This document shows, one piece after another, positions 21,613 through 42,011 of a stretch of DNA of 64,000 nucleotides. How positions within the stretch are numbered: the first letter of the stretch is position 1; each line of letters begins with the position of its first letter. The stretch lies in NCBI GenBank assembly GCA_040218735.1, contig JAVJQW010000049.1, forward strand, positions 128,001 through 192,000, written 5' to 3'. The translations under genes and the position numbers were made by a program. Origin of the DNA: Deltaproteobacteria bacterium. Lineage in GTDB: Bacteria > Myxococcota > Kuafuiibacteriia > Kuafuiibacteriales > Kuafuiibacteriaceae. Below the pieces are notes generated by a model. It was not told the DNA's origin. It was given only the letters and a program-made list of their open reading frames with translations, and did no database searches.

Positions 21613-23730
21613 TCACCGCCAGCTGAAGCCCGAGAAGTGGCAGTCCGTGCAATCGATTCGCCCGAACGGGTGCGCGCCCGGGGCGACCGAACGCCCGCGC
21701 GCTGCGTCGAGCGCGTGGCAGTCGAAGCAGTCGGTCGGCAGCCCGACCCAGCGCTCGTTCGTGTGGCAGTCCATGCACGGCGTGACGAAGTGCCGTCCGC
21801 GCAGCGGCCACCCCGAGACGTCGTGGTCGAAGCGGACGAGGCTCCACCGATCGGCTTCGTGGCACCGTTGGCACTGGACGCCGAGCTGTCCGCTGTGCGG
21901 CTCGACGTGGCAGGTCCCGCACCGCTCCAACGGTGGCGCCACCTGACCGGCGGGGTGGCACTTCGCACACTTCAGCGCTGCGTGCCGGCGGACGAGATCG
22001 AACCCGGTGCCGCGGTGGTCGAAGGGATCGTCGAAGGCGCGCGACTCGTCGTGGCAGTCGCGACAGACCCCGAGCGCTTCGGAGTGGGTCGGCGCGTGGC
22101 AATTCACGCAGGCCTGCCGGTCCTTCGCCGCGTTCATCCGCGTGCTGTTCGTGCCTTCATGGCACTTCTCACATTTGGTCTCGGCGTGTTTCCCGGCGAG
22201 CTCGAACCCCGTGAGTTTGTGGTCGAACTTCGTGACCGGTGTGAAGCCATCGTTGGTGTGGCAGCTCGCGCAGTCCTCACCGAACTTACCTTGGTGGACG
22301 TCGACGTGGCAGCCGGCGCACTCGACCGGGAGGCCCGTCAGCTGCCCGCCGACGTGGCAGTCACTGCATTCGACCGACTTGTGTTTCCCCGCGAGCGGGA
22401 ACTTCGTCTCTTCGTGGCGCTCGACGGTGAAGAGGGCGGGGGGCGACCAGTCGGCCGTCGAGTGGCACGTCTCGCAGGCGGCCTTGGCCTGTCCGTCGTG
22501 CGCGTCCTCGTGGCAGTGCACGCATGCCTTCGTCCCCTTCGGGAAGTCCTTCGTCTTCTCCGCGTGGCAGTCTTGGCAACTCACCTCCACGTGTTGCCCG
22601 TCGATAGGGAAGCCGGTCGATTCGTGTTTGAACTTCGGTTGGTCGAAGCCCTTTTCGTTGTGGCACTGTTCGCACGCGCCGAAGTCACCGTGGGCCTTCA
22701 TGCCCTCGTCGCGGTGGCAGCCCGCGCAATCCTCCGGAGCCGCCTTGAACTGAGTTCGTCGACGCCGCTTCTGGAAGTGGCACCGGTCGCAGTCGACGGT
22801 CAGGTGGAGATCGACCAGCTCGAACCTCGACTTCTTGTTGTGATCGAACCGGTTGTTCTTCCACGACGTCGCCGAGTGACAGAGGCTGCACTCACCCAAG
22901 AACTCATGCGTCGACTCCTTCGCGTGACAGCCGCTGCAGAGGGTCGGGGTGTTCGTGAAGTCGAAGTCGACGTGGCAGCTCGTGCACGACGCCGTCCGGT
23001 GTTTCCCAGGGAACTTACACGTGCAGTAGGAGTGGTCGAACTTCGCGGGCTTCCAACCCGCGACCTGGTGGCAGTTGTCGCAGGGGGCGTTCGTCCCGTC
23101 GTGTCCGCGCTCGTGACACGTCGCGCACCGGACCTCCTTCGTCAGGCTGCGCCCGCCGAGGTGGCAGTCCGTGCACGTGCGCTCGGCGTGGCCGCCGTGC
23201 ATCGCGACCGCGTGGTCGCCGATCTTCTTGAGCCCCGTCTTCCAGCTCGTGTCGCCGTGGCACTTCTGGCACTGCGCGCCGAGCTCACCTTCGTGGACGT
23301 CGTCGTGGCACTTGGCGCACAGCGAACCCATCTCGCGGAGGGGTTTTGTGTGGCACTTCGCGCAGTCGATCCCGTCGTGTTTGCCGCGCAGCGCGAAGCG
23401 CGTGTCGTCGTGGGTGAATTTCTCGAGCGCGGCGGCCACGGTGAGGGACGCGCTCCGCCCACCGTGGTCGGCGTGACAATCGATGCACGGGGTCTTCGCG
23501 ACCTTCGCGTGGTACCCGACCGACTTGTCGATCCTGCGGTCGAGGTCCACGTGACAGTCGAGGCACTTCTCGTCGGGGACGCCCTTGAAGACGAGGTGGC
23601 AGCTGTCGCAGTTGGATTCGGTCTTCACGTGGTCGGTGCCGACGGGGCCCGGCGACAGGAGCGCCTGCCAGCCCGCGACCGCCGCGGCGGGCGCGAGCAC
23701 GATCGAGATTGCGATGACGAGACGTTTCAC
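21613..23730 (-). CDS. 30-heme c-type cytochrome built of ten triheme (c7-like) repeats
   Basis: Signal peptide VKRLVIAISIVLAPAAAVA; 30 CxxCH motifs counted; recurring FxH..T.F.L.GxH module before each triad. Confidence 0.95.
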   Translation of the reverse strand: MKRLVIAISIVLAPAAAVAGWQALLSPGPVGTDHVKTESNCDSCHLVFKGVPDEKCLDCHVDLDRRIDKSVGYHAKVAKTPCIDCHADHGGRSASLTVAAALEKFTHDDTRFALRGKHDGIDCAKCHTKPLREMGSLCAKCHDDVHEGELGAQCQKCHGDTSWKTGLKKIGDHAVAMHGGHAERTCTDCHLGGRSLTKEVRCATCHERGHDGTNAPCDNCHQVAGWKPAKFDHSYCTCKFPGKHRTASCTSCHVDFDFTNTPTLCSGCHAKESTHEFLGECSLCHSATSWKNNRFDHNKKSRFELVDLHLTVDCDRCHFQKRRRRTQFKAAPEDCAGCHRDEGMKAHGDFGACEQCHNEKGFDQPKFKHESTGFPIDGQHVEVSCQDCHAEKTKDFPKGTKACVHCHEDAHDGQAKAACETCHSTADWSPPALFTVERHEETKFPLAGKHKSVECSDCHVGGQLTGLPVECAGCHVDVHQGKFGEDCASCHTNDGFTPVTKFDHKLTGFELAGKHAETKCEKCHEGTNSTRMNAAKDRQACVNCHAPTHSEALGVCRDCHDESRAFDDPFDHRGTGFDLVRRHAALKCAKCHPAGQVAPPLERCGTCHVEPHSGQLGVQCQRCHEADRWSLVRFDHDVSGWPLRGRHFVTPCMDCHTNERWVGLPTDCFDCHALDAARGRSVAPGAHPFGRIDCTDCHFSGFSWR

Positions 23731-25103
23731 CACGTCGCACCCCACTGCGCACCGGCGTGTACGAAGAAGCGGATCTCCCCGCCGTTGAGGTTCTTCTCGA
23801 AGTCGCCGCCTCCGAAGAAGTACGCGTGTGCGTAGAAGATCCGCGCGAACAACACTTGCTGCGCCTGGAGCACGAACGGCGACAGGTCGTCCGGGTCGAC
23901 GGGTTGGCCGGGGGAGCGCGGATCGAAGGCGAGGCCCGAAACCGGTGCCGCGGAGCGTTCGAGGAAGCGGACGCCGGCCTGTGCGTCGACGTTGAATCGG
24001 CGGAACCCGAGCGCGCCCTTCCAGAGGATGCGGTCGAGGTCGGGACCGTCGGGGTCGTCGAATTCGATGTCGTCGTAGAAGATGCGCGCGAGGAGGTACG
24101 GACCCTTGATCCCCAGGCGGTTCGCTTCGATGGAGGCGCCGTAGCGGATCTCGCGCCGGTCCTCGCGGATGCGCAGGCGCGCCGAGGCGCGAACCCATCC
24201 GAGCTCCAGCGGCTGCACCGCGGCGTGGACGCGGTTGTCGAGGAAGTTCGGATCCTGGAGGACGTCGAGGTCGTCCGCGAGGCCTTCACGGAACACCGCG
24301 GCGCGTTGGAACTGGCCTTGGTAACCCACGCGAACCCAGTCGAAGGGCTGGTAGTCGGCGAACAGCACGACGCCGAGGAGGTTGAGCGCATTGGCCTGAA
24401 GCTGCGCCGACGACCACGACGGCCCGAGCACGTACGAGGCGCGTTCGGAGAACGAGACGTTGCCGCCGATCGTCAGCTCGTCGGTCGGGCGACCGACGCC
24501 GAAGAGCATCAGGTTGAACGCGTCGAAGTCTTCGGTGACCTGGGTGTCGTCGTCCTGTCTCAGCAGCTCGATGCGGTCGCGCGCGAACGCACCGACGAGC
24601 GAGGCTGAAAGTCGGGTGTCGCGCCAGGAGACGCCGCCGCCCACCGCGGGGAGGAAGTCGGAGAGGTCGACGTTGCGCCGTGACGTCGTGAGCGCGCGGC
24701 GGCCGCCGAACGCTTCGAAGCGGAGGCGGCCGTTGCGGTAGGCTGCCTTGACCGCGTCGACGGGGAGGAACGATGCGGAGCCCGCGACGAAGCGCCCGGC
24801 CGACAGCTCGAGGCCGTCGACGATCTCGTAGCCGACCTCCGCCTGGTAGAGGAGGCGGAGCGTGGTGTTCTGCACGGCGCCGCCGACCGGTTCGCGGCCG
24901 CGGTAGTCGACGGCGACCCGAAGTTTGTCGTCCAGCTCGCGAAGTCGCAGCCGGACGTGCATGCCGATCTCCTGCGCGGCGAACGACTCCGTGTCGGAGG
25001 ACGCCTCCGCCCGGAAGAAGTCGGTCGAGACGCTGCCGTCGACCTCGCCGGCGAACGCCGGGGACCCGAACAACACACAGAGGATGAACGCCAGGGCGCG
25101 CAT
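23727..25103 (-). CDS. Putative outer-membrane beta-barrel protein
   Basis: Signal peptide MRALAFILCVLFGSPAFA; alternating amphipathic strands; terminal Trp (FVHAGAQWGATW); no CxxCH; stop overlaps the cytochrome start. Confidence 0.7.
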   Translation of the reverse strand: MRALAFILCVLFGSPAFAGEVDGSVSTDFFRAEASSDTESFAAQEIGMHVRLRLRELDDKLRVAVDYRGREPVGGAVQNTTLRLLYQAEVGYEIVDGLELSAGRFVAGSASFLPVDAVKAAYRNGRLRFEAFGGRRALTTSRRNVDLSDFLPAVGGGVSWRDTRLSASLVGAFARDRIELLRQDDDTQVTEDFDAFNLMLFGVGRPTDELTIGGNVSFSERASYVLGPSWSSAQLQANALNLLGVVLFADYQPFDWVRVGYQGQFQRAAVFREGLADDLDVLQDPNFLDNRVHAAVQPLELGWVRASARLRIREDRREIRYGASIEANRLGIKGPYLLARIFYDDIEFDDPDGPDLDRILWKGALGFRRFNVDAQAGVRFLERSAAPVSGLAFDPRSPGQPVDPDDLSPFVLQAQQVLFARIFYAHAYFFGGGDFEKNLNGGEIRFFVHAGAQWGATW

Positions 25104-25861
25104 CACAGCCCGGGCGTGAACATGTACGAGAGGATGACGTGGACCGCCGCGAGCACGTACATCATCGCGGCGATCGGACGGTGCGCGATGATCCACCGCG
25201 AGAAGATCTTGTTGGCGGCCGCGTAGGCGATCATGCGCCGTTCGAGGATCAGACGCCGCTCCGCGAGCTCGCGAACCTGCGGCGCCAGCGACATCCCGCT
25301 CAATTGGCGGCGTGCTCGGCGGGCGTCGAGGTCGGCGCGCATCAGGCCGATGAGTCCGGAGGGCTTGGGGCCCTTTTGCGACAAGGCGAGAACCTCCGCG
25401 GGGAGGTCGCCGAGGGACGATAGCTCCGCATCGACGTCCTTCACCTCCATGCGCTCGCCATGAATGCTCCTCGGGAGCATCGAGTACATATAGCGGCCGA
25501 AGAGTCCGGAGAAGAACACGATGAGTACGAATACAAAACTCAGGAAGCCCGGGTTCAGCGGTGAGATGGGTGCCTCGCGGGTAAACAGGTGTGTCGAGTG
25601 GAATCCGACGAGGATCATGCCCTGAAATCCGAGGAAGATGTGCAGATGCAGCCACGCCGAGAGTCGCGCGACCTGCCGTAATCCTCGCGATCGTCGCGCG
25701 ATCGAGTAGACGAGCATGACGATCATCGCGATGAGTCCGCCCCAGCCTAGATAGATCGACAGTGGCGCGGATGAGTTGGGTGGGTCTTGGATGTAAACAA
25801 CGCTGAGATAGATCGTCTCGGCGATGATGATGACGAAATATAAGATTGGGATGAGTCGCAT
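25103..25861 (-). CDS. Integral membrane protein, ferric-reductase-like di-heme b candidate
   Basis: About five TM helices; two H-x13-H pairs (HIFLGFQGMILVGFH, HRPIAAMMYVLAAVH). Confidence 0.75.
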   Translation of the reverse strand: MRLIPILYFVIIIAETIYLSVVYIQDPPNSSAPLSIYLGWGGLIAMIVMLVYSIARRSRGLRQVARLSAWLHLHIFLGFQGMILVGFHSTHLFTREAPISPLNPGFLSFVFVLIVFFSGLFGRYMYSMLPRSIHGERMEVKDVDAELSSLGDLPAEVLALSQKGPKPSGLIGLMRADLDARRARRQLSGMSLAPQVRELAERRLILERRMIAYAAANKIFSRWIIAHRPIAAMMYVLAAVHVILSYMFTPGL

Positions 25862-25904
25862 TTATTATCGTCCTGGTCTCGCCGGGGTGGTAACTTCTCG
25901 GGCC

Positions 25905-27227
25905 GTGGAAGTCGTCGTCGGGTTCGGAGTGCTCATGCTTGGCCTCATCCTCCTCTGGGGCGTGCGGTCGCTGCGCGGCCAGCGCGAGCTGGAGTCGCAG
26001 TCGCGCGAGAACCTCTCGCACGCCGAACGGTCGGGCGCGCTCCCGCCGTCGCTCCACCCCAAGGTCAACCTCGACGTCTGCATCGGCACGGGCGCATGCG
26101 TGAAGGTCTGCCCGGAGGTCGACGTGCTCGGCCTGATCGACGGCAAGGCGCGGCTCGCGAACCCGACGAAGTGCATCGGTCACGGCGAGTGCCTGCGTGC
26201 GTGTCCCGTCGATGCGATCGAGCTGGTGATCGGCAACGAGCGCCGCGGCGTGGATATCCCGCTCGTCTCCTCGGAGTTCGAAACCAACGTGCCGAATCTC
26301 TACGTGGTGGGCGAGCTCGGGGGCATGGGCCTCATCTACAACGCGATGACGCAGGCGCTGCAGTGCATGCGCGCCGTGAAGCGCGCCGTACCGAAGAAGC
26401 AAGAGGGCGTGCATCAGCTGGTGATCGTCGGCGCCGGGCCGGCGGGGCTCGCGGCGTCGCTCGCGGCCATCGAGGCGAAGCTCGACTACGTGACGGTGGA
26501 TCAGGAGTCGATGGGCGGCACGGTGCTGCAGTACCCGCGACAGAAGATCGTGATGAGCCGCCCCGTGCAGCTCCCGATCTACGGCAAGCTCGCGATCACC
26601 ACGGTGTCGAAGGAGGACCTGCTCGCGCAGTGGGAGGACATCGTCACGAAGACCGGCGTCCGGGTTCGAAACCAAGTGCGCGTCGATGGCGTGAAGAAGG
26701 GCGACGACGGCATCTTCGAGGTCGCGACTTCGCAAGGTACCTTGCGCGCGAACGTCGTGCTCCTCGCGATGGGGCGACGCGGGACGCCGCGGAAGCTCGG
26801 CGTGCCGGGTGAGGACCTGCCAAAGGTCACCTACCGTTTGCTCGAACCGGAGAACTACGCGGGGAGCCGTTGCCTCGTGGTCGGCGGCGGCGACTCCGCA
26901 GTGGAGGCGGCGATCGCGCTGGGCGAGGCGGGTGCCACGGTCCACCTGTCGTACCGCGGGAGCGCGTTCGGTCGCATCAAGCCGAAGAACCAGGAGCGCC
27001 TCGACGCCGCGGTCGGTGCGGGCAAGGTCGCGCTGATGATGGAGACCAACACGAAGGCGATCACGAAGGACGCGGTGACGCTCGACGACGGCGGTCGTTC
27101 CATCGAGCTGCCCAACGACTACGTGCTCGTGTTCGCGGGCGGCGTGCTGCCGACGAAGTTCCTGCAGGCGGCGGGGGTCGAGGTGCAGACGTTCAAGGGC
27201 GAGGCCTTCGCGCCTGCGAATACCTGA
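25905..27227 (+). CDS. Membrane-anchored ferredoxin-domain FAD/NADPH oxidoreductase (TrxB/YpdA-like)
   Basis: N-terminal TM; CIGTGACVKVCP and CIGHGECLRACP; VIVGAGPAG; VVGGGDSAVEAA..SYRG; no redox CxxC; start uncertain. Confidence 0.9.
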   Translation: MEVVVGFGVLMLGLILLWGVRSLRGQRELESQSRENLSHAERSGALPPSLHPKVNLDVCIGTGACVKVCPEVDVLGLIDGKARLANPTKCIGHGECLRACPVDAIELVIGNERRGVDIPLVSSEFETNVPNLYVVGELGGMGLIYNAMTQALQCMRAVKRAVPKKQEGVHQLVIVGAGPAGLAASLAAIEAKLDYVTVDQESMGGTVLQYPRQKIVMSRPVQLPIYGKLAITTVSKEDLLAQWEDIVTKTGVRVRNQVRVDGVKKGDDGIFEVATSQGTLRANVVLLAMGRRGTPRKLGVPGEDLPKVTYRLLEPENYAGSRCLVVGGGDSAVEAAIALGEAGATVHLSYRGSAFGRIKPKNQERLDAAVGAGKVALMMETNTKAITKDAVTLDDGGRSIELPNDYVLVFAGGVLPTKFLQAAGVEVQTFKGEAFAPANT

Positions 27228-27259
27228 GCGTTCGACGACGAAGACGATCACGGCGCGGC

Positions 27260-28321
27260 TCAGTTGAAGTCGACCGTTCCGTCGACGTGGCGGTTCGGCG
27301 CGGTGATGGTGAGGTTCGGGCCGGCGACGGCGCCGTGGCAGTTGTTACAGGCGGACGAGCCGGGGTGCGGCGGCGGCGGAGGGTTCGCGTGGCAGGTGCC
27401 GCAGGCGGCCTGCGTGCCGTCGACATTCGTCCACACCGGCGTGGTGCTGCCGTGGCAGTGGGTGTTCGCGCACGTCGCGGCGTCGCGATCCCACGCGGGC
27501 GTGCGTCCACCGGTGGTGGGGACGGCTCCCCAGACGACCTCGGCGGGGGGCGCCGTGTCGGTGTGTCCGGGGTCGCCGACGGCCTGGATGTCGACGTGAC
27601 AAGCCGTGCACGTGACCGGCGCGAAGGGGCCGGCGGGGGCCAGGTGGATGCGGTGGGCGCCGACGCCGACGGTGGACGTGTCGGAGGCGCCGTTCAGATC
27701 GAGGGGCGGCGCGGGGTCGCTGTCGTCGCCGTGGCATCCGGTCGCACAGGAGCCGCCGCCTCCGTCGACGTCGAGCGTCCCGTCGAGGTGTCGCGACGGA
27801 TCCGCGAGCGTCTGGTTCGGTCCGGCGACGGGCGCGTGGCACGCCTCGCAGGTGTTCGAGGCGGGGTGGGGCGGCGGCGGCGGCATCGCGTGGCAGGCGC
27901 CGCACGCGGCTTCACTGCCGTCGAGGTCGGTCCATGCCGGCGCGCCCGCGCCGTGGCAGTAGGTGTTGTTGCAGGCGGCGGTCGCGCGGTCGTAGGTCGG
28001 GGCGGCGCCGGTGGAGGCGAGCGCGCCGAACTGGACCTCGGCGGGCCACGGGGTGTCGATGTGGCCGGGTGCATCGACGGTGCCCGGCACGAGGTGGCAC
28101 TCCCCGCACGCGACGGCGCGGCCGAGGCGCGCGCCGGTGAGGTGGGCCTGGTGCGCGCCGACCGCGGGGCCGTCGTCGATGCCGCCGAGCCCGGAGGGCG
28201 GCGCGGCGTTTGCGGCGCCGCCGTGGCAGTCCGCGCACCCGGCGACGGCGGGGACGTCCTGAGCGCGCTCGAAGCACGCCGTGGCGAGCAGGAGGAAGAG
28301 CAGGGGAGCGGGGGGGCGCAA
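27260..28321 (-). CDS. Lipoprotein multiheme cytochrome c with CxxxxCH/CxxCH domains (two tandem units)
   Basis: Lipobox LATAC; 7 CxxCH, 2 Cx4CH (CNNTYCH, CANTHCH), 1 Cx3CH (CATGCH). Confidence 0.9.
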   Translation of the reverse strand: MRPPAPLLFLLLATACFERAQDVPAVAGCADCHGGAANAAPPSGLGGIDDGPAVGAHQAHLTGARLGRAVACGECHLVPGTVDAPGHIDTPWPAEVQFGALASTGAAPTYDRATAACNNTYCHGAGAPAWTDLDGSEAACGACHAMPPPPPHPASNTCEACHAPVAGPNQTLADPSRHLDGTLDVDGGGGSCATGCHGDDSDPAPPLDLNGASDTSTVGVGAHRIHLAPAGPFAPVTCTACHVDIQAVGDPGHTDTAPPAEVVWGAVPTTGGRTPAWDRDAATCANTHCHGSTTPVWTNVDGTQAACGTCHANPPPPPHPGSSACNNCHGAVAGPNLTITAPNRHVDGTVDFN

Positions 28322-30145: not shown

Positions 30146-30264
30146 TCGACGACGGGTAGCGCCTCGCGTCGCTCGGGCGCAACGCGAATTCGTCGGGTTC
30201 TCGTGCGCGTCGCGGCGCGGAACGACCTCGAGGCGGAGCCTTCGCGGCAGAGTGGCTGGAAGTT

Positions 30265-30417
30265 GGGTCTCAGACCCGGTCTGGAGGTTCTTGGAGGCTC
30301 GGAGCTGGGTTTGAAACCCGATTTGGAGGTTCTAAGAGGGTCGGGATTGGGTTTGAAACCCGATTCGGAGGTTCTGAGAGGGTCGGGATTGGGTTTGAAA
30401 CCCGATTTGGACCCTCT
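30265..30417. repeat. Tandem array of about 3.5 copies of a 42-bp palindromic unit
   Basis: Units start at 30265, 30307, 30349, 30391; unit 2 is GGGTTTGAAACCCGATTTGGAGGTTCTAAGAGGGTCGGGATT. Confidence 0.9.
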
Positions 30418-30455: not shown

Positions 30456-33400
30456 TCAGCCGAGGATCTCCACGAGCTCAGCGAGCACCCGCAGCTCGCC
30501 TGCGGCGACATCCTCGAACACCATCGCCTCGAATCGCGGGTCGGATGAGGCGGGCATGAGGGTCACGCGGTTGATGGCACCGTCCGCGCCGACGTCTGGT
30601 TGGTAGACCTTCACCGTGTAGCTCCCCAGGTCCGCATCACGCAGCTCGTCGTGCCGAACCAGGACGATCGTTCCGGCGGAAGGTGTGTCAATCGCGAGCG
30701 TCCAAAGGCACCAGGCCCCGTTGGGGATCCTTAGGTTCATCGACTCGCCGACGACCTGCGCCACGAACAGACGGGGGGCCGCCTTTGTCTTGCCCTTCAG
30801 TCCAGCCCACTCGAACTGCGACGGATTGGCGACCTCCTCGTGCTGGGGCACCTCCTCCACCGACTGCAGCGCCGAGAAGCGCCCCGCAGCGATCTTCAGG
30901 TCGTAAATGGGCACCGCGTTCACGAACGGACGCACGTCCTCCGCGGGTAGGTGCGCGAAGGGGAGCACGGTCGCTGCGGTCGGCTTGTCGCGGATCCGTT
31001 TGTAGACCTCCTGGAGCATCCGCTTGGAGAGGAACTCACGGAGGTGCGGGTCCTCGAAGAACAACGTCACGAAGTCGGCGTCGACCTCGAGGTGCTCTGC
31101 CATCGTGTTCGCGAGCGCGGGGTTGAACACGTGCGCGAAGTTGGCTTCGTCGTTCGCCTCGGCGCTGAGCCGGATGTCGTCGGCGTCGACGAGCGCGTCC
31201 GCGACGCCCCCGAGGAACTCGTTGACGTGGTCGGGGAGGTCGAGGCCGAAGCGCTGGTTGAGGGCTTCGATGATCGTCGACAGTTTCTCAGTCGGGCTCT
31301 GCGCCACGCCGGTGCCCGTGGCCGTCGGGCCCGGGAGCTCGCCGGCTTGCCCCTTCGTGAGGGGCATCTCACCCTCGGCGTCCTTCTTGAGCTTGAGGGA
31401 CGTCAGGATGACGTCGTCGTCGAGGTCGAGCGGTCCGCCCGTTTCGGGGCGCGGGAGCTTCCTGAGGAGCATCCGTCCGAACGCGTAGAGCTTTTCGAGG
31501 TGTCGGTCCTCGAACGGGATGACCTGAGCGAGGTAGGCGTACAGGTTCTTGAACGCCACGAGCTGCGCCCGGAACGTCTCCTGGAGGGCGACGCGCTCCT
31601 CGTCGTTGGCCCCGAGCGCCTTGAAACGATCCACCGCCGGGTCGAGCCACCCGTTGAGCTTCGCGTGGCTCGACGGGTTCACGTGTTCGGCGAGCTGATA
31701 GAAGACCGCGGCGAAGCCGTCGACCTCCGAGGACGTGTAGACGTGGGCGTCCGCGAGGTCGTGCTGCAGCTCGTAGAGTCGCTGGGGGTCGACGTCCTCC
31801 GCGATGGTGGTCGTCTCGTAGAAGTCTTGGAACGAGTCGAGGATGGTCTCGCGCTCGTTGACGAAGTCGAGGACGAACGTGACCTCCTTGCCGCGCGCGG
31901 TCCGGTTGAGGCGCGAGAGCGTCTGCACGGCCTGGATCCCCGATAGCCGCTTGTCGACGTACATCGCGCAGAGGAGCGGCTGGTCGAAGCCGGTCTGGTA
32001 CTTGTTGGCGACGAGGAGCACCTGATAGGCGCGCGACGCGAACCTCTCCGGTAGCTCGGTCTCGCTGATGCCCTCGTTCATCTGCGGCTCCGTGTACTCG
32101 ACGCCGGGCGCGTCCGGGTCCGTCACGGAGCCCGAGAAGGCGACGAGGCAGCGGATGTCGGCGTAGCCCTTCTTCGAGATGTAGCCGTCGAAGCTCAGCT
32201 TGTACTTTACGGCCTGTATGCGAGAGCCCGTCACGACCATCGCCTTGGCGCGGCCCTCGAGCTGGTGCGCCACCGTGATGCGGAAGTGCTCGATGATGAG
32301 CTCGGTCTTCTGCGCGATGTTGGTCGGGTGGAGGTTCACGAACCTCGCGAGCGCCGACGACGCCTTCTTCTTGTCGAGCTGCGGGTCGTCGGCGACGGCC
32401 TTCGCGAGCTTGAAGAACCGCTTGTAGGTCGTGTAGCCGCGGAGGACGTCGAGGATGAAGCCCTCCTCGATGGCCTGGCGCATCGAGTAGAGGTGGAACG
32501 GGGCCGGCTTGCCGTCCGGGCCCTCGTGGCCAAAGAGCTTCAGCGTCTTGTGCTTCGGCGTCGCCGTGAAGGCGAAGAAGCTCATGTTCTTCTGCGGTCC
32601 ACGGAGGAGCGCTTTCCGGAGCGCGAGCTGGTCCGGCGTAGAGAGCTCTTCTTCGATCTGCTCTTCGGTGAGTTTGTCGTCGAGCGTGCTGTCCGCGAGC
32701 ATCTCCTTGACGCTCAGGGCCATCTCGCCGCTCTGCGACGAGTGGGCCTCGTCGACGATGATCGCGTAGCGCCGGTCGGGGAGCTTCTCGATCTTGTCCT
32801 GGATGAACCCGAACTTGTGGATGGTCGAAATGATGATCGGCGTCCCGGTCTTCAGCGCGGTGGCGAGCTGCTGCGAGTGCTTGTCGATCTTCTCGACCAC
32901 GCCTTCCGCGTGGTCGAACTGGTAGATGGTGTGCTGGAGCTGTTGATCGAGCACGCGCCTGTCCGTGAGCACGACGACGGAGTGGTAGATCTTCTCGTCG
33001 TTCGCGTCGTGCAGCGAGGCCAGGCGGTGGGCGAGCCACGCGATGGAGTTCGACTTGCCGGACCCGGCCGAGTGCTGGACGAGGTAGTTGGTCCCGGCGC
33101 CGTGGTGTCGGCAGGCGGCTTCGAGCTTCCGCACGCAGTCGAGCTGGTGGAAGCGGGGGAAGATCATGGTCTCCTTCGACCATTTCTTGCCGGTGTCCGG
33201 ATCGACGCCCGTCTCGGTCTGCAGGTGCATGAAGCGGCCGATGATGTCGAGGAGGCTCCGTCGCGCCCAGACCTGCTCCCACAGGTAGGAGGTGCGGTGC
33301 TTCCCGGGCACGGCGGGGTTGCCGGCGCCGTGGTCGTGGCCGCGGTTGAAGGGGAGGAAGAAGGTCTGGTGCCGACTGAGGCGCGTGGTCATCCATGCCT

Positions 33401-33989
33401 CGTCGGTGTCGACGGCGAAGTGGACCAGCGCGCGTTTCTTGAACTGGAAGATCGGGGCCTTCGGGTCGCGGTCGGTCTTGTACTGCTTCCTCGCCTGCCA
33501 CGCCTGCTGCCCGGTCATGGCGTTCTTCAGCTCGCAGGTCACGATGGGGACGCCGTTGAGGCACAGCGTGAGGTCGAGCTCGTTGTCGTTGTTCGGGTCG
33601 TAGCGGAGCTGCCGCACGACGGAGAGCCGGTTGGCTTCGAACTTCGTCCACAGGTCGGGGTTCTTGTCGTGCCCGGGCTCGAAGTAGGCGAGGCTGAGCT
33701 TCTGACCGTAGAAGGGGAGGCCGTGGCGCAGCACCTCCAGAGACCCGCGCTTGTCCATGACCTTGACGACCTCCTGGATGAACAGCGGCTCGAGCTTGTC
33801 CTTCAGGATGCCTTCGAGCTTCGCCCACGGCTTCGGCTGGGTCGTCCGGACGAAGTCGATGAGGAGCTGCGGGAAGAGGGCGAGGGTGCGGTCGTAGGTG
33901 TTGGGGGAGAGGGGCTCGTAGCCATGCGCGAGGAGGTGGGCTTCGATCTCCGCCTCGAAGGTGTGTTCGGTGTGGATGCCGAGCGCCAT
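30456..33989 (-). CDS. hsdR: Type I restriction enzyme R subunit with C-terminal S24/LexA-like peptidase domain
   Basis: DLTLCLNGVPIVTCELKN nuclease; QHSAGSGKS, DEAH, FTATP, TGFD, QTLSRLNR; C-terminal IAAG, VVGESM, YTVK. Confidence 0.95.
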   Translation of the reverse strand: MALGIHTEHTFEAEIEAHLLAHGYEPLSPNTYDRTLALFPQLLIDFVRTTQPKPWAKLEGILKDKLEPLFIQEVVKVMDKRGSLEVLRHGLPFYGQKLSLAYFEPGHDKNPDLWTKFEANRLSVVRQLRYDPNNDNELDLTLCLNGVPIVTCELKNAMTGQQAWQARKQYKTDRDPKAPIFQFKKRALVHFAVDTDEAWMTTRLSRHQTFFLPFNRGHDHGAGNPAVPGKHRTSYLWEQVWARRSLLDIIGRFMHLQTETGVDPDTGKKWSKETMIFPRFHQLDCVRKLEAACRHHGAGTNYLVQHSAGSGKSNSIAWLAHRLASLHDANDEKIYHSVVVLTDRRVLDQQLQHTIYQFDHAEGVVEKIDKHSQQLATALKTGTPIIISTIHKFGFIQDKIEKLPDRRYAIIVDEAHSSQSGEMALSVKEMLADSTLDDKLTEEQIEEELSTPDQLALRKALLRGPQKNMSFFAFTATPKHKTLKLFGHEGPDGKPAPFHLYSMRQAIEEGFILDVLRGYTTYKRFFKLAKAVADDPQLDKKKASSALARFVNLHPTNIAQKTELIIEHFRITVAHQLEGRAKAMVVTGSRIQAVKYKLSFDGYISKKGYADIRCLVAFSGSVTDPDAPGVEYTEPQMNEGISETELPERFASRAYQVLLVANKYQTGFDQPLLCAMYVDKRLSGIQAVQTLSRLNRTARGKEVTFVLDFVNERETILDSFQDFYETTTIAEDVDPQRLYELQHDLADAHVYTSSEVDGFAAVFYQLAEHVNPSSHAKLNGWLDPAVDRFKALGANDEERVALQETFRAQLVAFKNLYAYLAQVIPFEDRHLEKLYAFGRMLLRKLPRPETGGPLDLDDDVILTSLKLKKDAEGEMPLTKGQAGELPGPTATGTGVAQSPTEKLSTIIEALNQRFGLDLPDHVNEFLGGVADALVDADDIRLSAEANDEANFAHVFNPALANTMAEHLEVDADFVTLFFEDPHLREFLSKRMLQEVYKRIRDKPTAATVLPFAHLPAEDVRPFVNAVPIYDLKIAAGRFSALQSVEEVPQHEEVANPSQFEWAGLKGKTKAAPRLFVAQVVGESMNLRIPNGAWCLWTLAIDTPSAGTIVLVRHDELRDADLGSYTVKVYQPDVGADGAINRVTLMPASSDPRFEAMVFEDVAAGELRVLAELVEILG

Positions 33990-39421: not shown

Positions 39422-39855
39422 CGTCCGGTGACCAGCAGTGGTTCGTCGACACCGGCGTCCTCGTACACGTACTTCGCGGTAGTGCCCTTGGCCGCTACGT
39501 CCTCGACGACCTCCAGCTCCGTGCGGTGGCCGAGGTGCCGTACGTCTCCGTCGTCACGGTCGGAGAGCTCCTCTCGCTCGCATCGCAGTTCGGGTGGGGC
39601 GCGAAGCGCCGCGCGCAGATGTACGAGGTTCTGGCGGAGCTGATCGTCGTCGACATCAACCAGGAGGCCACGCTCGAGCGGTACGCGGAGCTCGACGCCT
39701 GGTGCGTGAAGCGCGGGTGGTCGCTGGGGAAGAACGACCTCTGGATCGCGGCTTCAGCGGCGGTGACCGGCGCGATGATTCTGACCGTGGACAAGGACTT
39801 CGATGCACTGGAGGGCGTGGGCGGCGTTCGTCGGCTCTATCTCGACCCCGGATGA
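39418..39855 (+). CDS. vapC: PIN-domain ribonuclease toxin (VapC family)
   Basis: [28 protein letters not shown]: four acidic catalytic positions present. Confidence 0.92.
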
Positions 39856-39926
39856 CCTGGGTCGAGCCATCCGCCCCCTCGGTCCCTCTTGCCGACACGG
39901 GCCGGCACCCTCCCGGGCCGGGGTTT

Positions 39927-39944
39927 GCGGTTTCTCCAAACCGC
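39927..39944. promoter_or_regulatory. Palindrome GCGGTTT-CTCC-AAACCGC, possible operator upstream of prkA
   Basis: Perfect 7-bp inverted repeat directly before a TAGCGT -10-like hexamer. Confidence 0.3.
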
Positions 39945-39962
39945 GTTAGCGTCTCACCTCCC

Positions 39963-42011
<2,049 letters not shown>

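Follow-up and report, generated by a model that had tools for sequence, protein, structure and literature searches.

The hsdR gene of a type I restriction-modification (R-M) operon was found to encode, behind a canonical restriction subunit, an additional C-terminal domain of the LexA/CI/UmuD-type S24 peptidase family, with a predicted cleavage site and a predicted Ser-Lys dyad. The operon lies in a stretch of 64,000 nucleotides (nt), hereafter the window, which covers positions 128,001 to 192,000 of contig JAVJQW010000049.1 in the assembly GCA_040218735.1 of a Deltaproteobacteria bacterium from the phylum Myxococcota. The same tail recurs at the C-terminus of other DNA-targeting enzymes, and the S24 tail module is portable between defence-enzyme architectures. 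The tail suggests an undescribed switch that links a DNA-damage signal to restriction.

The HsdR protein of the window consists of a body and a tail, whose coordinates are collected in Table 1. Four Pfam families were detected above their cut-offs in the body, namely HSDR_N (56 bits), SWI2_SNF2 (89 bits), ResIII (49 bits) and T1R_D3-like (38 bits), and the NCBIfam model TIGR00348 reached 183 bits, which is below its cut-off of 284.55. The nuclease residues D139...E153-L-K155, the Walker A motif GSGKS (residues 309-313) and the DEAH box (residues 413-416) could be read from the sequence, and the body is apparently a complete and functional type I restriction subunit. Tail-less relatives, which are at most 77% identical, stop directly behind the ...EVYKRIR... 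helix, a point that corresponds to about residue 1000-1005 in the window protein. An earlier note on this DNA, made from the sequence alone, had claimed that the frame continues for about 170 residues past the normal end of HsdR and that this extension is a LexA/S24-like autoprotease domain with an Ala-Gly site, a serine and a lysine. The end points of the tail-less relatives bear out the first claim. The motifs VPIYDLKIAAG, LFVAQVVGESM and YTVK are all present, and counting codons from the start at position 33989 places the Ala-Gly bond, the serine and the lysine where they had been located. The domain assignment itself was borne out mainly by profile alignment and fold comparison, with a borderline match of the Pfam model, as follows.

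The Pfam model Peptidase_S24 (PF00717) scored 19.4 bits on the whole protein against a gathering cut-off of 23.3 bits, and a borderline 23.4 bits (E 5.1e-5) on the last 191 residues alone; it matched 86 of the 105 scanned tail relatives at E≤1e-3, some with up to 59 bits. Neither NCBIfam nor PADLOC holds a model for the tail. A phmmer search of the tail against the PDB sequences gave nothing meaningful (a chance-level match to a natural killer (NK) receptor, E 0.52), and a profile built from 54 tail sequences found LexA chains exclusively, at weak E values between 0.021 and 1. Since these sequence searches against the PDB were weak, a fold search was needed to place the tail. The AlphaFold2 (AF2) model of the tail had a predicted local distance difference test (pLDDT) value of 87.8 and a predicted template modelling (pTM) score of 0.80. 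All 30 Foldseek matches of this model in the PDB at E≤1e-3 were LexA or lambda cI chains, with UmuD appearing from E 1.3e-3, and the best match was the LexA of T. maritima (3k2z_A, E 4.5e-6). Alignment of the tail profile with the LexA encoded by the same genome, using hhalign, gave a probability of 84% and an E value of 7.5e-6, and placed GESM of the tail on GDSM of LexA and TVK on TVK. The borderline Pfam scores of 19.4 and 23.4 bits and the weak profile matches speak against the assignment of the tail to the LexA/CI/UmuD-type S24 domains, which is sound by fold and motifs. A prediction of two tail copies in complex, made with a LexA-like homodimer in mind, scored 0.00; it provides no answer and is evidence neither way.

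To describe the conservation of the predicted site and dyad, we used an alignment of 227 tails, comprising the window tail and those 226 of 269 matched proteins, from the listed matches of two tail searches, that cover the whole domain. At the cleavage site, A1034 was kept in 220 tails, A1035 in 224 and G1036 in 217. Ser1083 was kept in 218 tails (Ala in 7) and the adjacent M1084 in 222, while Lys1127 was kept in 218 (Arg in 9). Moreover, F1075 was invariant (227/227), W1061 was kept in 225 tails, and the pre-cleavage columns P1027 and L1031 were kept in 224 and 208, respectively. In each of the 26 columns with a conservation of 90% or more, the window tail agrees with the consensus. Ala/Cys-Gly, Ser and Lys occur together in 216 of the 227 tails. 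In the other 11 tails, all of these are gone at once, with Ser replaced by Ala and Lys by Arg and the Ala-Gly site missing; these tails persist nonetheless and look like catalytically dead pseudo-peptidases. Five of them are attached to SNF2/Helicase_C proteins (P0132, P0144, P0158, P0202 and P0217), further members include P0142, P0164, P0169 and P0244, and the dead-tail proteins with a partner identified by Pfam are all SNF2-type helicases. The losses are coordinated, which argues that catalysis is real and selected in the other 95% of the tails.

The tail is not peculiar to the window. Tail searches found 427 proteins of 647-2060 amino acids (aa) at E≤1e-3, and 677 proteins at E≤1e-3 (233 at E≤1e-10) when 1.84 billion cluster representatives of any length were covered; the match was located nearly always at the extreme C-terminus. 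Among the best 120 relatives of the HsdR body, 48 were tailed (about 1156-1357 aa) and 72 were tail-less (mostly 993-1033 aa). A tree of 121 bodies was then computed by FastTree with the tails removed, leaving out P0002, which is identical to the window protein, as well as four rows with a length below 990 aa. The presence or absence of the tail on this tree required at least 11 changes, 8 of them forced by starred branches, against a shuffled mean of 39.2, in a pool where tailed forms are over-represented, as it combines two tail searches with the body search. It follows that the tail is an optional addition to a complete enzyme and has been gained or lost repeatedly.

The bodies that carry the tail are diverse. 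Hand-labelling from precomputed Pfam strings of 120 listed proteins out of the 427 tailed ones gave 41 HsdR proteins of the window's family, 34 DUF2075/SLFN-g3 helicases, 21 members of a second HsdR family with T1RH-like_C, 7 type III Res proteins, 5 DUF1998/MZB giant helicases (DruE-like by PADLOC), 4 Res proteins with RE_endonuc, 3 HATPase_c_3 proteins, 3 SNF2 proteins, 1 type IIG enzyme and 1 PF27151 protein. A set of 105 representatives with a length of 200 aa or more showed further partners, including Type_ISP_C (10), DUF3427 (3), MmeI-like (2), PLDc_2 (1), HNH_4 (1) and a GIY-YIG-DUF2075 combination; 8 of these 105 were HTH_3/HTH_31-S24 repressors, the closest non-defence relatives of the tail. 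On a tree of 120 tails, obtained by a quick IQ-TREE search in which most deep branches are unsupported, the ten architecture labels needed 22 changes, compared with a minimum of 9 and a shuffled mean of 66.9. Starred clades of this tree mix HATPase with HsdR-B, SNF2 with Res, and DruE-like proteins with the HsdR family of the window, and place HsdR-B within DUF2075. As a separate observation, the window tail (30459-31031, minus strand) has diverged faster than the body: where another HsdR body is about 80% identical to that of the window, the tail attached to it is about 60% identical. The end branch of the window tail on the tail tree has a length of 0.67, the median being 0.23.

In a sample of the phylum, a tail match at E≤1e-10 was present in 19 of 401 genomes, the source genome included; within the window's own family it was present in 1 of 19 other genomes, and a single genome of the same genus, 75% complete, gave no match at this threshold. 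At E≤1e-8, the only plasmid record with the tail, out of 72,556, was a Halomonas replicon of 1.8 Mb, and none of the 50,697 phage records contained it. In view of this near-absence from the plasmid and phage collections, we dropped the idea that its main benefit lies in the establishment of plasmid-borne R-M systems. The 11.6-Mb source assembly encodes two RecA proteins (468 and 447 bits), two ClpX proteins (641 and 599 bits) and a canonical LexA with ...LLGRVAAG..., GDSM and TVK. It also contains a second S24-tailed gene (L017:6239-11707, minus strand; G000:C64), which codes for an 1822-aa type ISP enzyme with Mrr_cat_2, helicase, ISP_coupler, N6_Mtase, Type_ISP_C and Peptidase_S24 (33.1 bits) domains. 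Its tail is 42% identical to that of the window and keeps the serine (GRSM) and the lysine (TIK), with IAAT in place of AAG. A few kb away, a gene for a 308-aa fusion of a response-regulator receiver domain with an Mrr_cat restriction nuclease (L017:1638-2564, minus strand; G000:C64) adjoins that of a 791-aa histidine kinase.

From the tail and its genomic setting we infer a cleavage event, a trigger, a degron and a direction of switching. In the reading that we tentatively prefer, the gene would join HsdR to a portable self-cleavage cassette and thereby provide built-in, SOS-coupled restriction alleviation. After DNA damage, filaments of RecA on single-stranded DNA (RecA*), or another co-protease signal, would engage the S24 core. 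Ser1083 and Lys1127 would then cut the Ala1035-Gly1036 bond, as in LexA, and leave the HsdR body with a 32-residue extension ending in ...D-L-K-I-A-A-COOH, a putative ssrA/LexA-like C-terminal degron. ClpXP would remove this HsdR and the methyltransferase M2S would stay, so that the unmethylated chromosomal DNA made in repair and recombination would be protected. The same cleave-and-destroy cassette would have been moved onto at least ten other DNA-targeting defence-enzyme architectures. The earlier note had likewise proposed a RecA*-sensing module that either inactivates or activates HsdR. The part that stood is a genuine S24 module with site and dyad in a recurrent and conserved fusion; the RecA* trigger and the direction stay conjectural. 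Inactivation would be favoured over activation, since a classical R-M enzyme has to work at a stage when there is no RecA* yet, and since the predicted new C-terminus resembles a ClpXP degron.

Cleavage of LexA, CI and the helix-turn-helix (HTH)-S24 repressors separates and inactivates their N-terminal part, and the N-terminal fragment of LexA reportedly ends in VAA. In the tail family, the predicted neo-C-terminus reads LK[I/V/A]AA in 136 of the 227 tails (LKIAA 55, LKVAA 49 and LKAAA 32). A screen in Escherichia coli (PMC10862746) identified a terminal Ala-Ala with an upstream Leu as the dominant ClpXP degron, with the consensus [L/F/Y/W]-[L/A/R]-L-A-A; the ...DLKIAA terminus of the window fits the terminal Ala-Ala with an upstream Leu/hydrophobic residue, a likeness of sequence alone. 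According to PMC10584840, which cites Neher 2003, LexA cleavage unmasks latent ClpX signals and the fragments are then destroyed. Furthermore, removal of the HsdR of EcoKI by ClpXP in restriction alleviation is described in PMC4231737 and PMC12707154.

The residues by which LexA binds RecA* are a pocket of F111, L113 and V153, which takes Phe203 of RecA loop L2, and an acidic patch, D150-D151-E152, directly ahead of the Lys strand (PMC9926225). According to the same source, LexA, UmuD and lambda CI have widely different sequences and use the same RecA groove. In the tail, the equivalent of F111 is the invariant F1075. Near the position of the acidic patch, an 8-residue insertion carries a conserved D1118 (221/227) and D/E1120 (217/227).

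Several points weigh against cleavage by RecA* followed by degradation. The position of L113 is taken by A1077 (Ala in 202 of 227 tails) and that of V153 by Y1124 (Tyr in 156 and Phe in 54), and the patch D150-E152 is not in place, as Gly and a variable residue are aligned there and the insertion stands instead. What remains after cleavage would be a tail-less HsdR of natural length with 32 extra residues, so the cut alone should not inactivate the enzyme and the model rests entirely on the degron. LexA and the related repressors likewise have Ala-Ala in front of Gly, so the conservation of this pair may reflect the specificity of the protease rather than a degron. The transfer-messenger RNA (tmRNA) tag of the genome, ANDDFVAAAVA, ends in ...AAAVA and not in LAA, so the degron rules of E. 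coli may not transfer to this organism. The type ISP tail of the same genome has Thr for the Gly at P1' of the site, and this tail and the persistence of the catalytically dead tails imply that the domain is of some use also without cleavage. Finally, cleavage, RecA dependence and degradation are predictions for every member of the family.

Among the other explanations, it is unlikely, although several observations would suit it, that the tail works in the opposite direction by keeping the enzyme inactive or unassembled until RecA* arising from phage replication or recombination intermediates induces cleavage and releases an active nuclease-translocase, which would result in infection-triggered restriction or abortive infection. 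The cleavage product would be close to the canonical tail-less HsdR and presumably active, but the conserved ...AA neo-terminus suits destruction rather than release. If the C-terminal region of HsdR contacts the methyltransferase, as is reportedly the case in EcoR124I, a bulky tail could block assembly. Latency would also be sensible for those tailed nucleases that have no Pfam methyltransferase domain in the same protein (PLDc_2, HNH_4, Nhi/AbiO-like DUF2075 and HATPase_c_3; neighbouring genes not searched), whereas a methylation-dependent R-M enzyme waiting for RecA* would be expected to miss the incoming DNA. The precedent of LexA and the HTH-S24 repressors, which are cleaved to inactivate their N-terminal part, speaks for the OFF direction as well.

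Real self-cleavage with a trigger other than host RecA* appears rather improbable. Such a trigger might be a phage protein (for example an anti-repressor, a single-stranded DNA-binding protein or a recombinase) or a DNA structure that the motor encounters while translocating; alternatively, the tail might mature slowly and constitutively. This explanation would fit the partial retention of the RecA-contact residues of LexA, the two family-specific insertions (8 and about 10 residues), the conserved extra N-terminal segment LPFRRV...V.PF.N, and the rarity of the tail in the phylum (19 of 401 genomes). The invariance of the Phe equivalent to F111 in all 227 tails and the two RecA copies in the genome argue for RecA* instead, as does the common RecA groove of the divergent LexA, UmuD and lambda CI (PMC9926225).

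We also consider it improbable that the tail has a mainly non-catalytic role in docking or oligomerisation, in which it might, for example, hold two motor subunits together or attach them to RecA filaments, with cleavage incidental or absent. LexA, UmuD' and CI dimerise through their S24 domains, the 11 tails without the catalytic set keep the fold-defining residues (5 of them on SNF2/Helicase_C proteins), and the type ISP tail of the same genome has IAAT for AAG, all of which would agree with such a role. Against it stand the joint presence of Ser, Lys and Ala/Cys-Gly in 216 of 227 tails and the coordination of the losses. An artefact, in which a lost stop codon (a possibility raised in the earlier note) or a mis-assembly had joined hsdR to a neighbouring repressor fragment, has no point in its favour and virtually no chance of being correct; it is excluded by the tail-search and body-relative counts, as the same junction occurs in 48 of the best 120 HsdR relatives from independent sources and 427 proteins of 647-2060 aa carry the tail, and further by the existence of the identical protein cluster P0002 and by a tail GC content that matches the gene body.

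The tailed hsdR is the last of four genes on the minus strand of the window, which form a type I operon in which each junction overlaps by 1 to 4 nt according to the open reading frame (ORF) coordinates (Table 1). The GC content of the operon (0.615-0.66) is slightly below that of the flanks (0.67-0.73) and of the genome (0.688). The extra gene between hsdS and hsdR, whose stop overlaps the hsdR start, shows a weak NucS_C-like N-terminal part (19.8 bits, below the Pfam cut-off).

Table 1. Coordinates in the window of the type I operon, the segments and predicted catalytic residues of the tailed HsdR, and the downstream repeat
Feature	Position	Strand	Evidence or remark
hsdM, methyltransferase subunit, 687 aa	36243..38306	-	Pfam N6_Mtase 198 bits, HsdM_N 89 bits; PADLOC MTase_I E 4e-287; 4-nt overlap with hsdS
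hsdS, specificity subunit, 444 aa	34912..36246	-	Pfam Methylase_S, 2 stretches; PADLOC Specificity_I E 3.3e-111
Extra gene between hsdS and hsdR, 308 aa	33989..34915	-	Pfam DUF5655 29.6 bits; PADLOC candidate family PDC-S18 E 1.6e-137
hsdR-S24 fusion gene, 1177 codons + stop	30456..33989	-	Pfam HSDR_N, SWI2_SNF2, ResIII, T1R_D3-like; PADLOC REase_I
Canonical HsdR body, residues 1-1003	30981..33989	-	End of tail-less relatives equivalent to residue ~1000-1005
Linker and conserved pre-cleavage segment, residues 1004-1035 (VLPF...VRPFVNAVPIYDLKIAA)	30885..30980	-	Predicted new C-terminus if cleaved
Predicted scissile bond Ala1035-Gly1036 (KIAA|G at 1032-1036)	30882..30887	-	AAG as in the genome's own LexA (RVAAG)
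S24 catalytic core, residues 1036-1177	30459..30884	-	Pfam, AF2 model, Foldseek, hhalign to own LexA
Ser1083, predicted nucleophile (GESM)	30741..30743	-	Aligns with GDSM of own LexA
Lys1127, predicted general base (YTVKVY)	30609..30611	-	Aligns with TVKRY of own LexA
42-nt tandem repeat, 3.5 copies	30263..30411	.	Tandem Repeats Finder (TRF); starts 45 nt past hsdR stop

Downstream of hsdR, a 42-nt tandem repeat was detected, whose RNA fold has a z score of -4.16. The sole other copy in the 11.6-Mb genome (G000:C64:189520-189629, L017:5513-5630; 2.8 copies, about 87% identical) follows the stop codon of the one other S24-tailed gene at a distance of about 610 nt, and the two tailed loci share no other similarity at the DNA level. 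No Rfam family came near its gathering score on the repeat, no terminator or promoter consensus was found in the region downstream of hsdR, and the core motif of the repeat was absent from the 1.5-kb flanks of 11 tail-gene loci from other genomes.

Elsewhere in the window, an ordinary 805-aa PrkA-type serine kinase/AAA protein is encoded upstream of the R-M operon (39594..42011, plus strand). An ORF of 1174 aa (23727..27251, minus strand) matches no Pfam family at E≤0.01, and long spurious ORFs are common at 69% GC. Two adjacent stretches of about 490 bp (27256-27747 and 27757-28238), which are 69% identical to each other, form a tandem duplication and sit where the long ORFs have no Pfam match.

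Compared with LexA, lambda CI and UmuD (MEROPS S24, PF00717), the HsdR tail shares the fold, the G-x-S-M serine, the T-V-K lysine, an Ala-Gly about 48 residues before the serine and the equivalent of the Phe111 that takes RecA loop L2. Its partner is different, being a restriction motor-nuclease of 1000 residues rather than a DNA-binding domain or a domain accessory to DNA polymerase V. Relative to LexA, the tail contains two insertions specific to its family and, ahead of the site, an additional conserved segment; it lacks the acidic patch and shows low sequence similarity. The XRE-family HTH-S24 repressors, which are CI-like (for example P0170, P0239 and P0253), are 35-45% identical to the tail over the pre-cleavage segment and the core, and carry an HTH domain where HsdR has the effector enzyme. 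The other S24-tailed enzymes (HsdR with T1RH-like_C, type III Res, type ISP/IIG, DruE-like, Nhi/AbiO-like DUF2075, SNF2, HATPase_c_3, DUF3427, PLD and HNH) have the same tail at 40-57% identity on a different body. With the restriction alleviation of EcoKI, the proposal shares the selective removal of HsdR when the chromosome is at risk (PMC4231737 and PMC12707154). According to PMC4231737, EcoKI differs in that no terminal degron was found, there is no self-cleavage, and ClpXP targets the translocating complexes; in the HsdR of the window, by contrast, a hypothetical latent degron would be unmasked by the S24 cut.

In the full-text literature that was searched, with supplements excluded and few subscription journals covered, we found no account of an S24 tail attached to a restriction or defence enzyme. 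PMC12458937, on YprA helicases, contains 0 mentions of S24, LexA, peptidase or protease, and PMC12707154, an R-M review from 2025, contains 0 mentions of S24 or LexA. The term "S24" in 10.1101/2022.05.11.491447 and PMC8569181 refers to table or figure labels and not to the peptidase, and in PMC4405046 it appears to be the name of a strain. What is new here comprises the intact tailed type I operon, the second tailed enzyme in the same genome, the trees of gain or loss and of shuffling, the comparison with known degrons, the residue-level check against the LexA-RecA* structure, and the catalytically dead subgroup.

Only in the case of some few enzymes from E. coli is it understood how restriction and other DNA-targeting defences avoid self-killing in repair, and for the EcoKI HsdR a ClpXP degron was never found (PMC4231737). 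A LexA-type module on the effector itself would be a simple and transferable solution and, if true, a direct link between the SOS response and immunity. It is possible, though somewhat doubtful, that a portable cassette of S24 domain and latent Ala-Ala degron ties the amount of DNA-cutting immune enzymes, in at least ten unrelated architectures (restriction types I, III, ISP and IIG, Druantia-like, Nhi-like and others), directly to the RecA*/SOS signal. Restriction alleviation and the control of autoimmunity would then have a general post-translational mechanism that is as yet undescribed. If the switch were instead one of activation, it would represent a new way of sensing infection. In either direction, the module marks hundreds of uncharacterised defence proteins.

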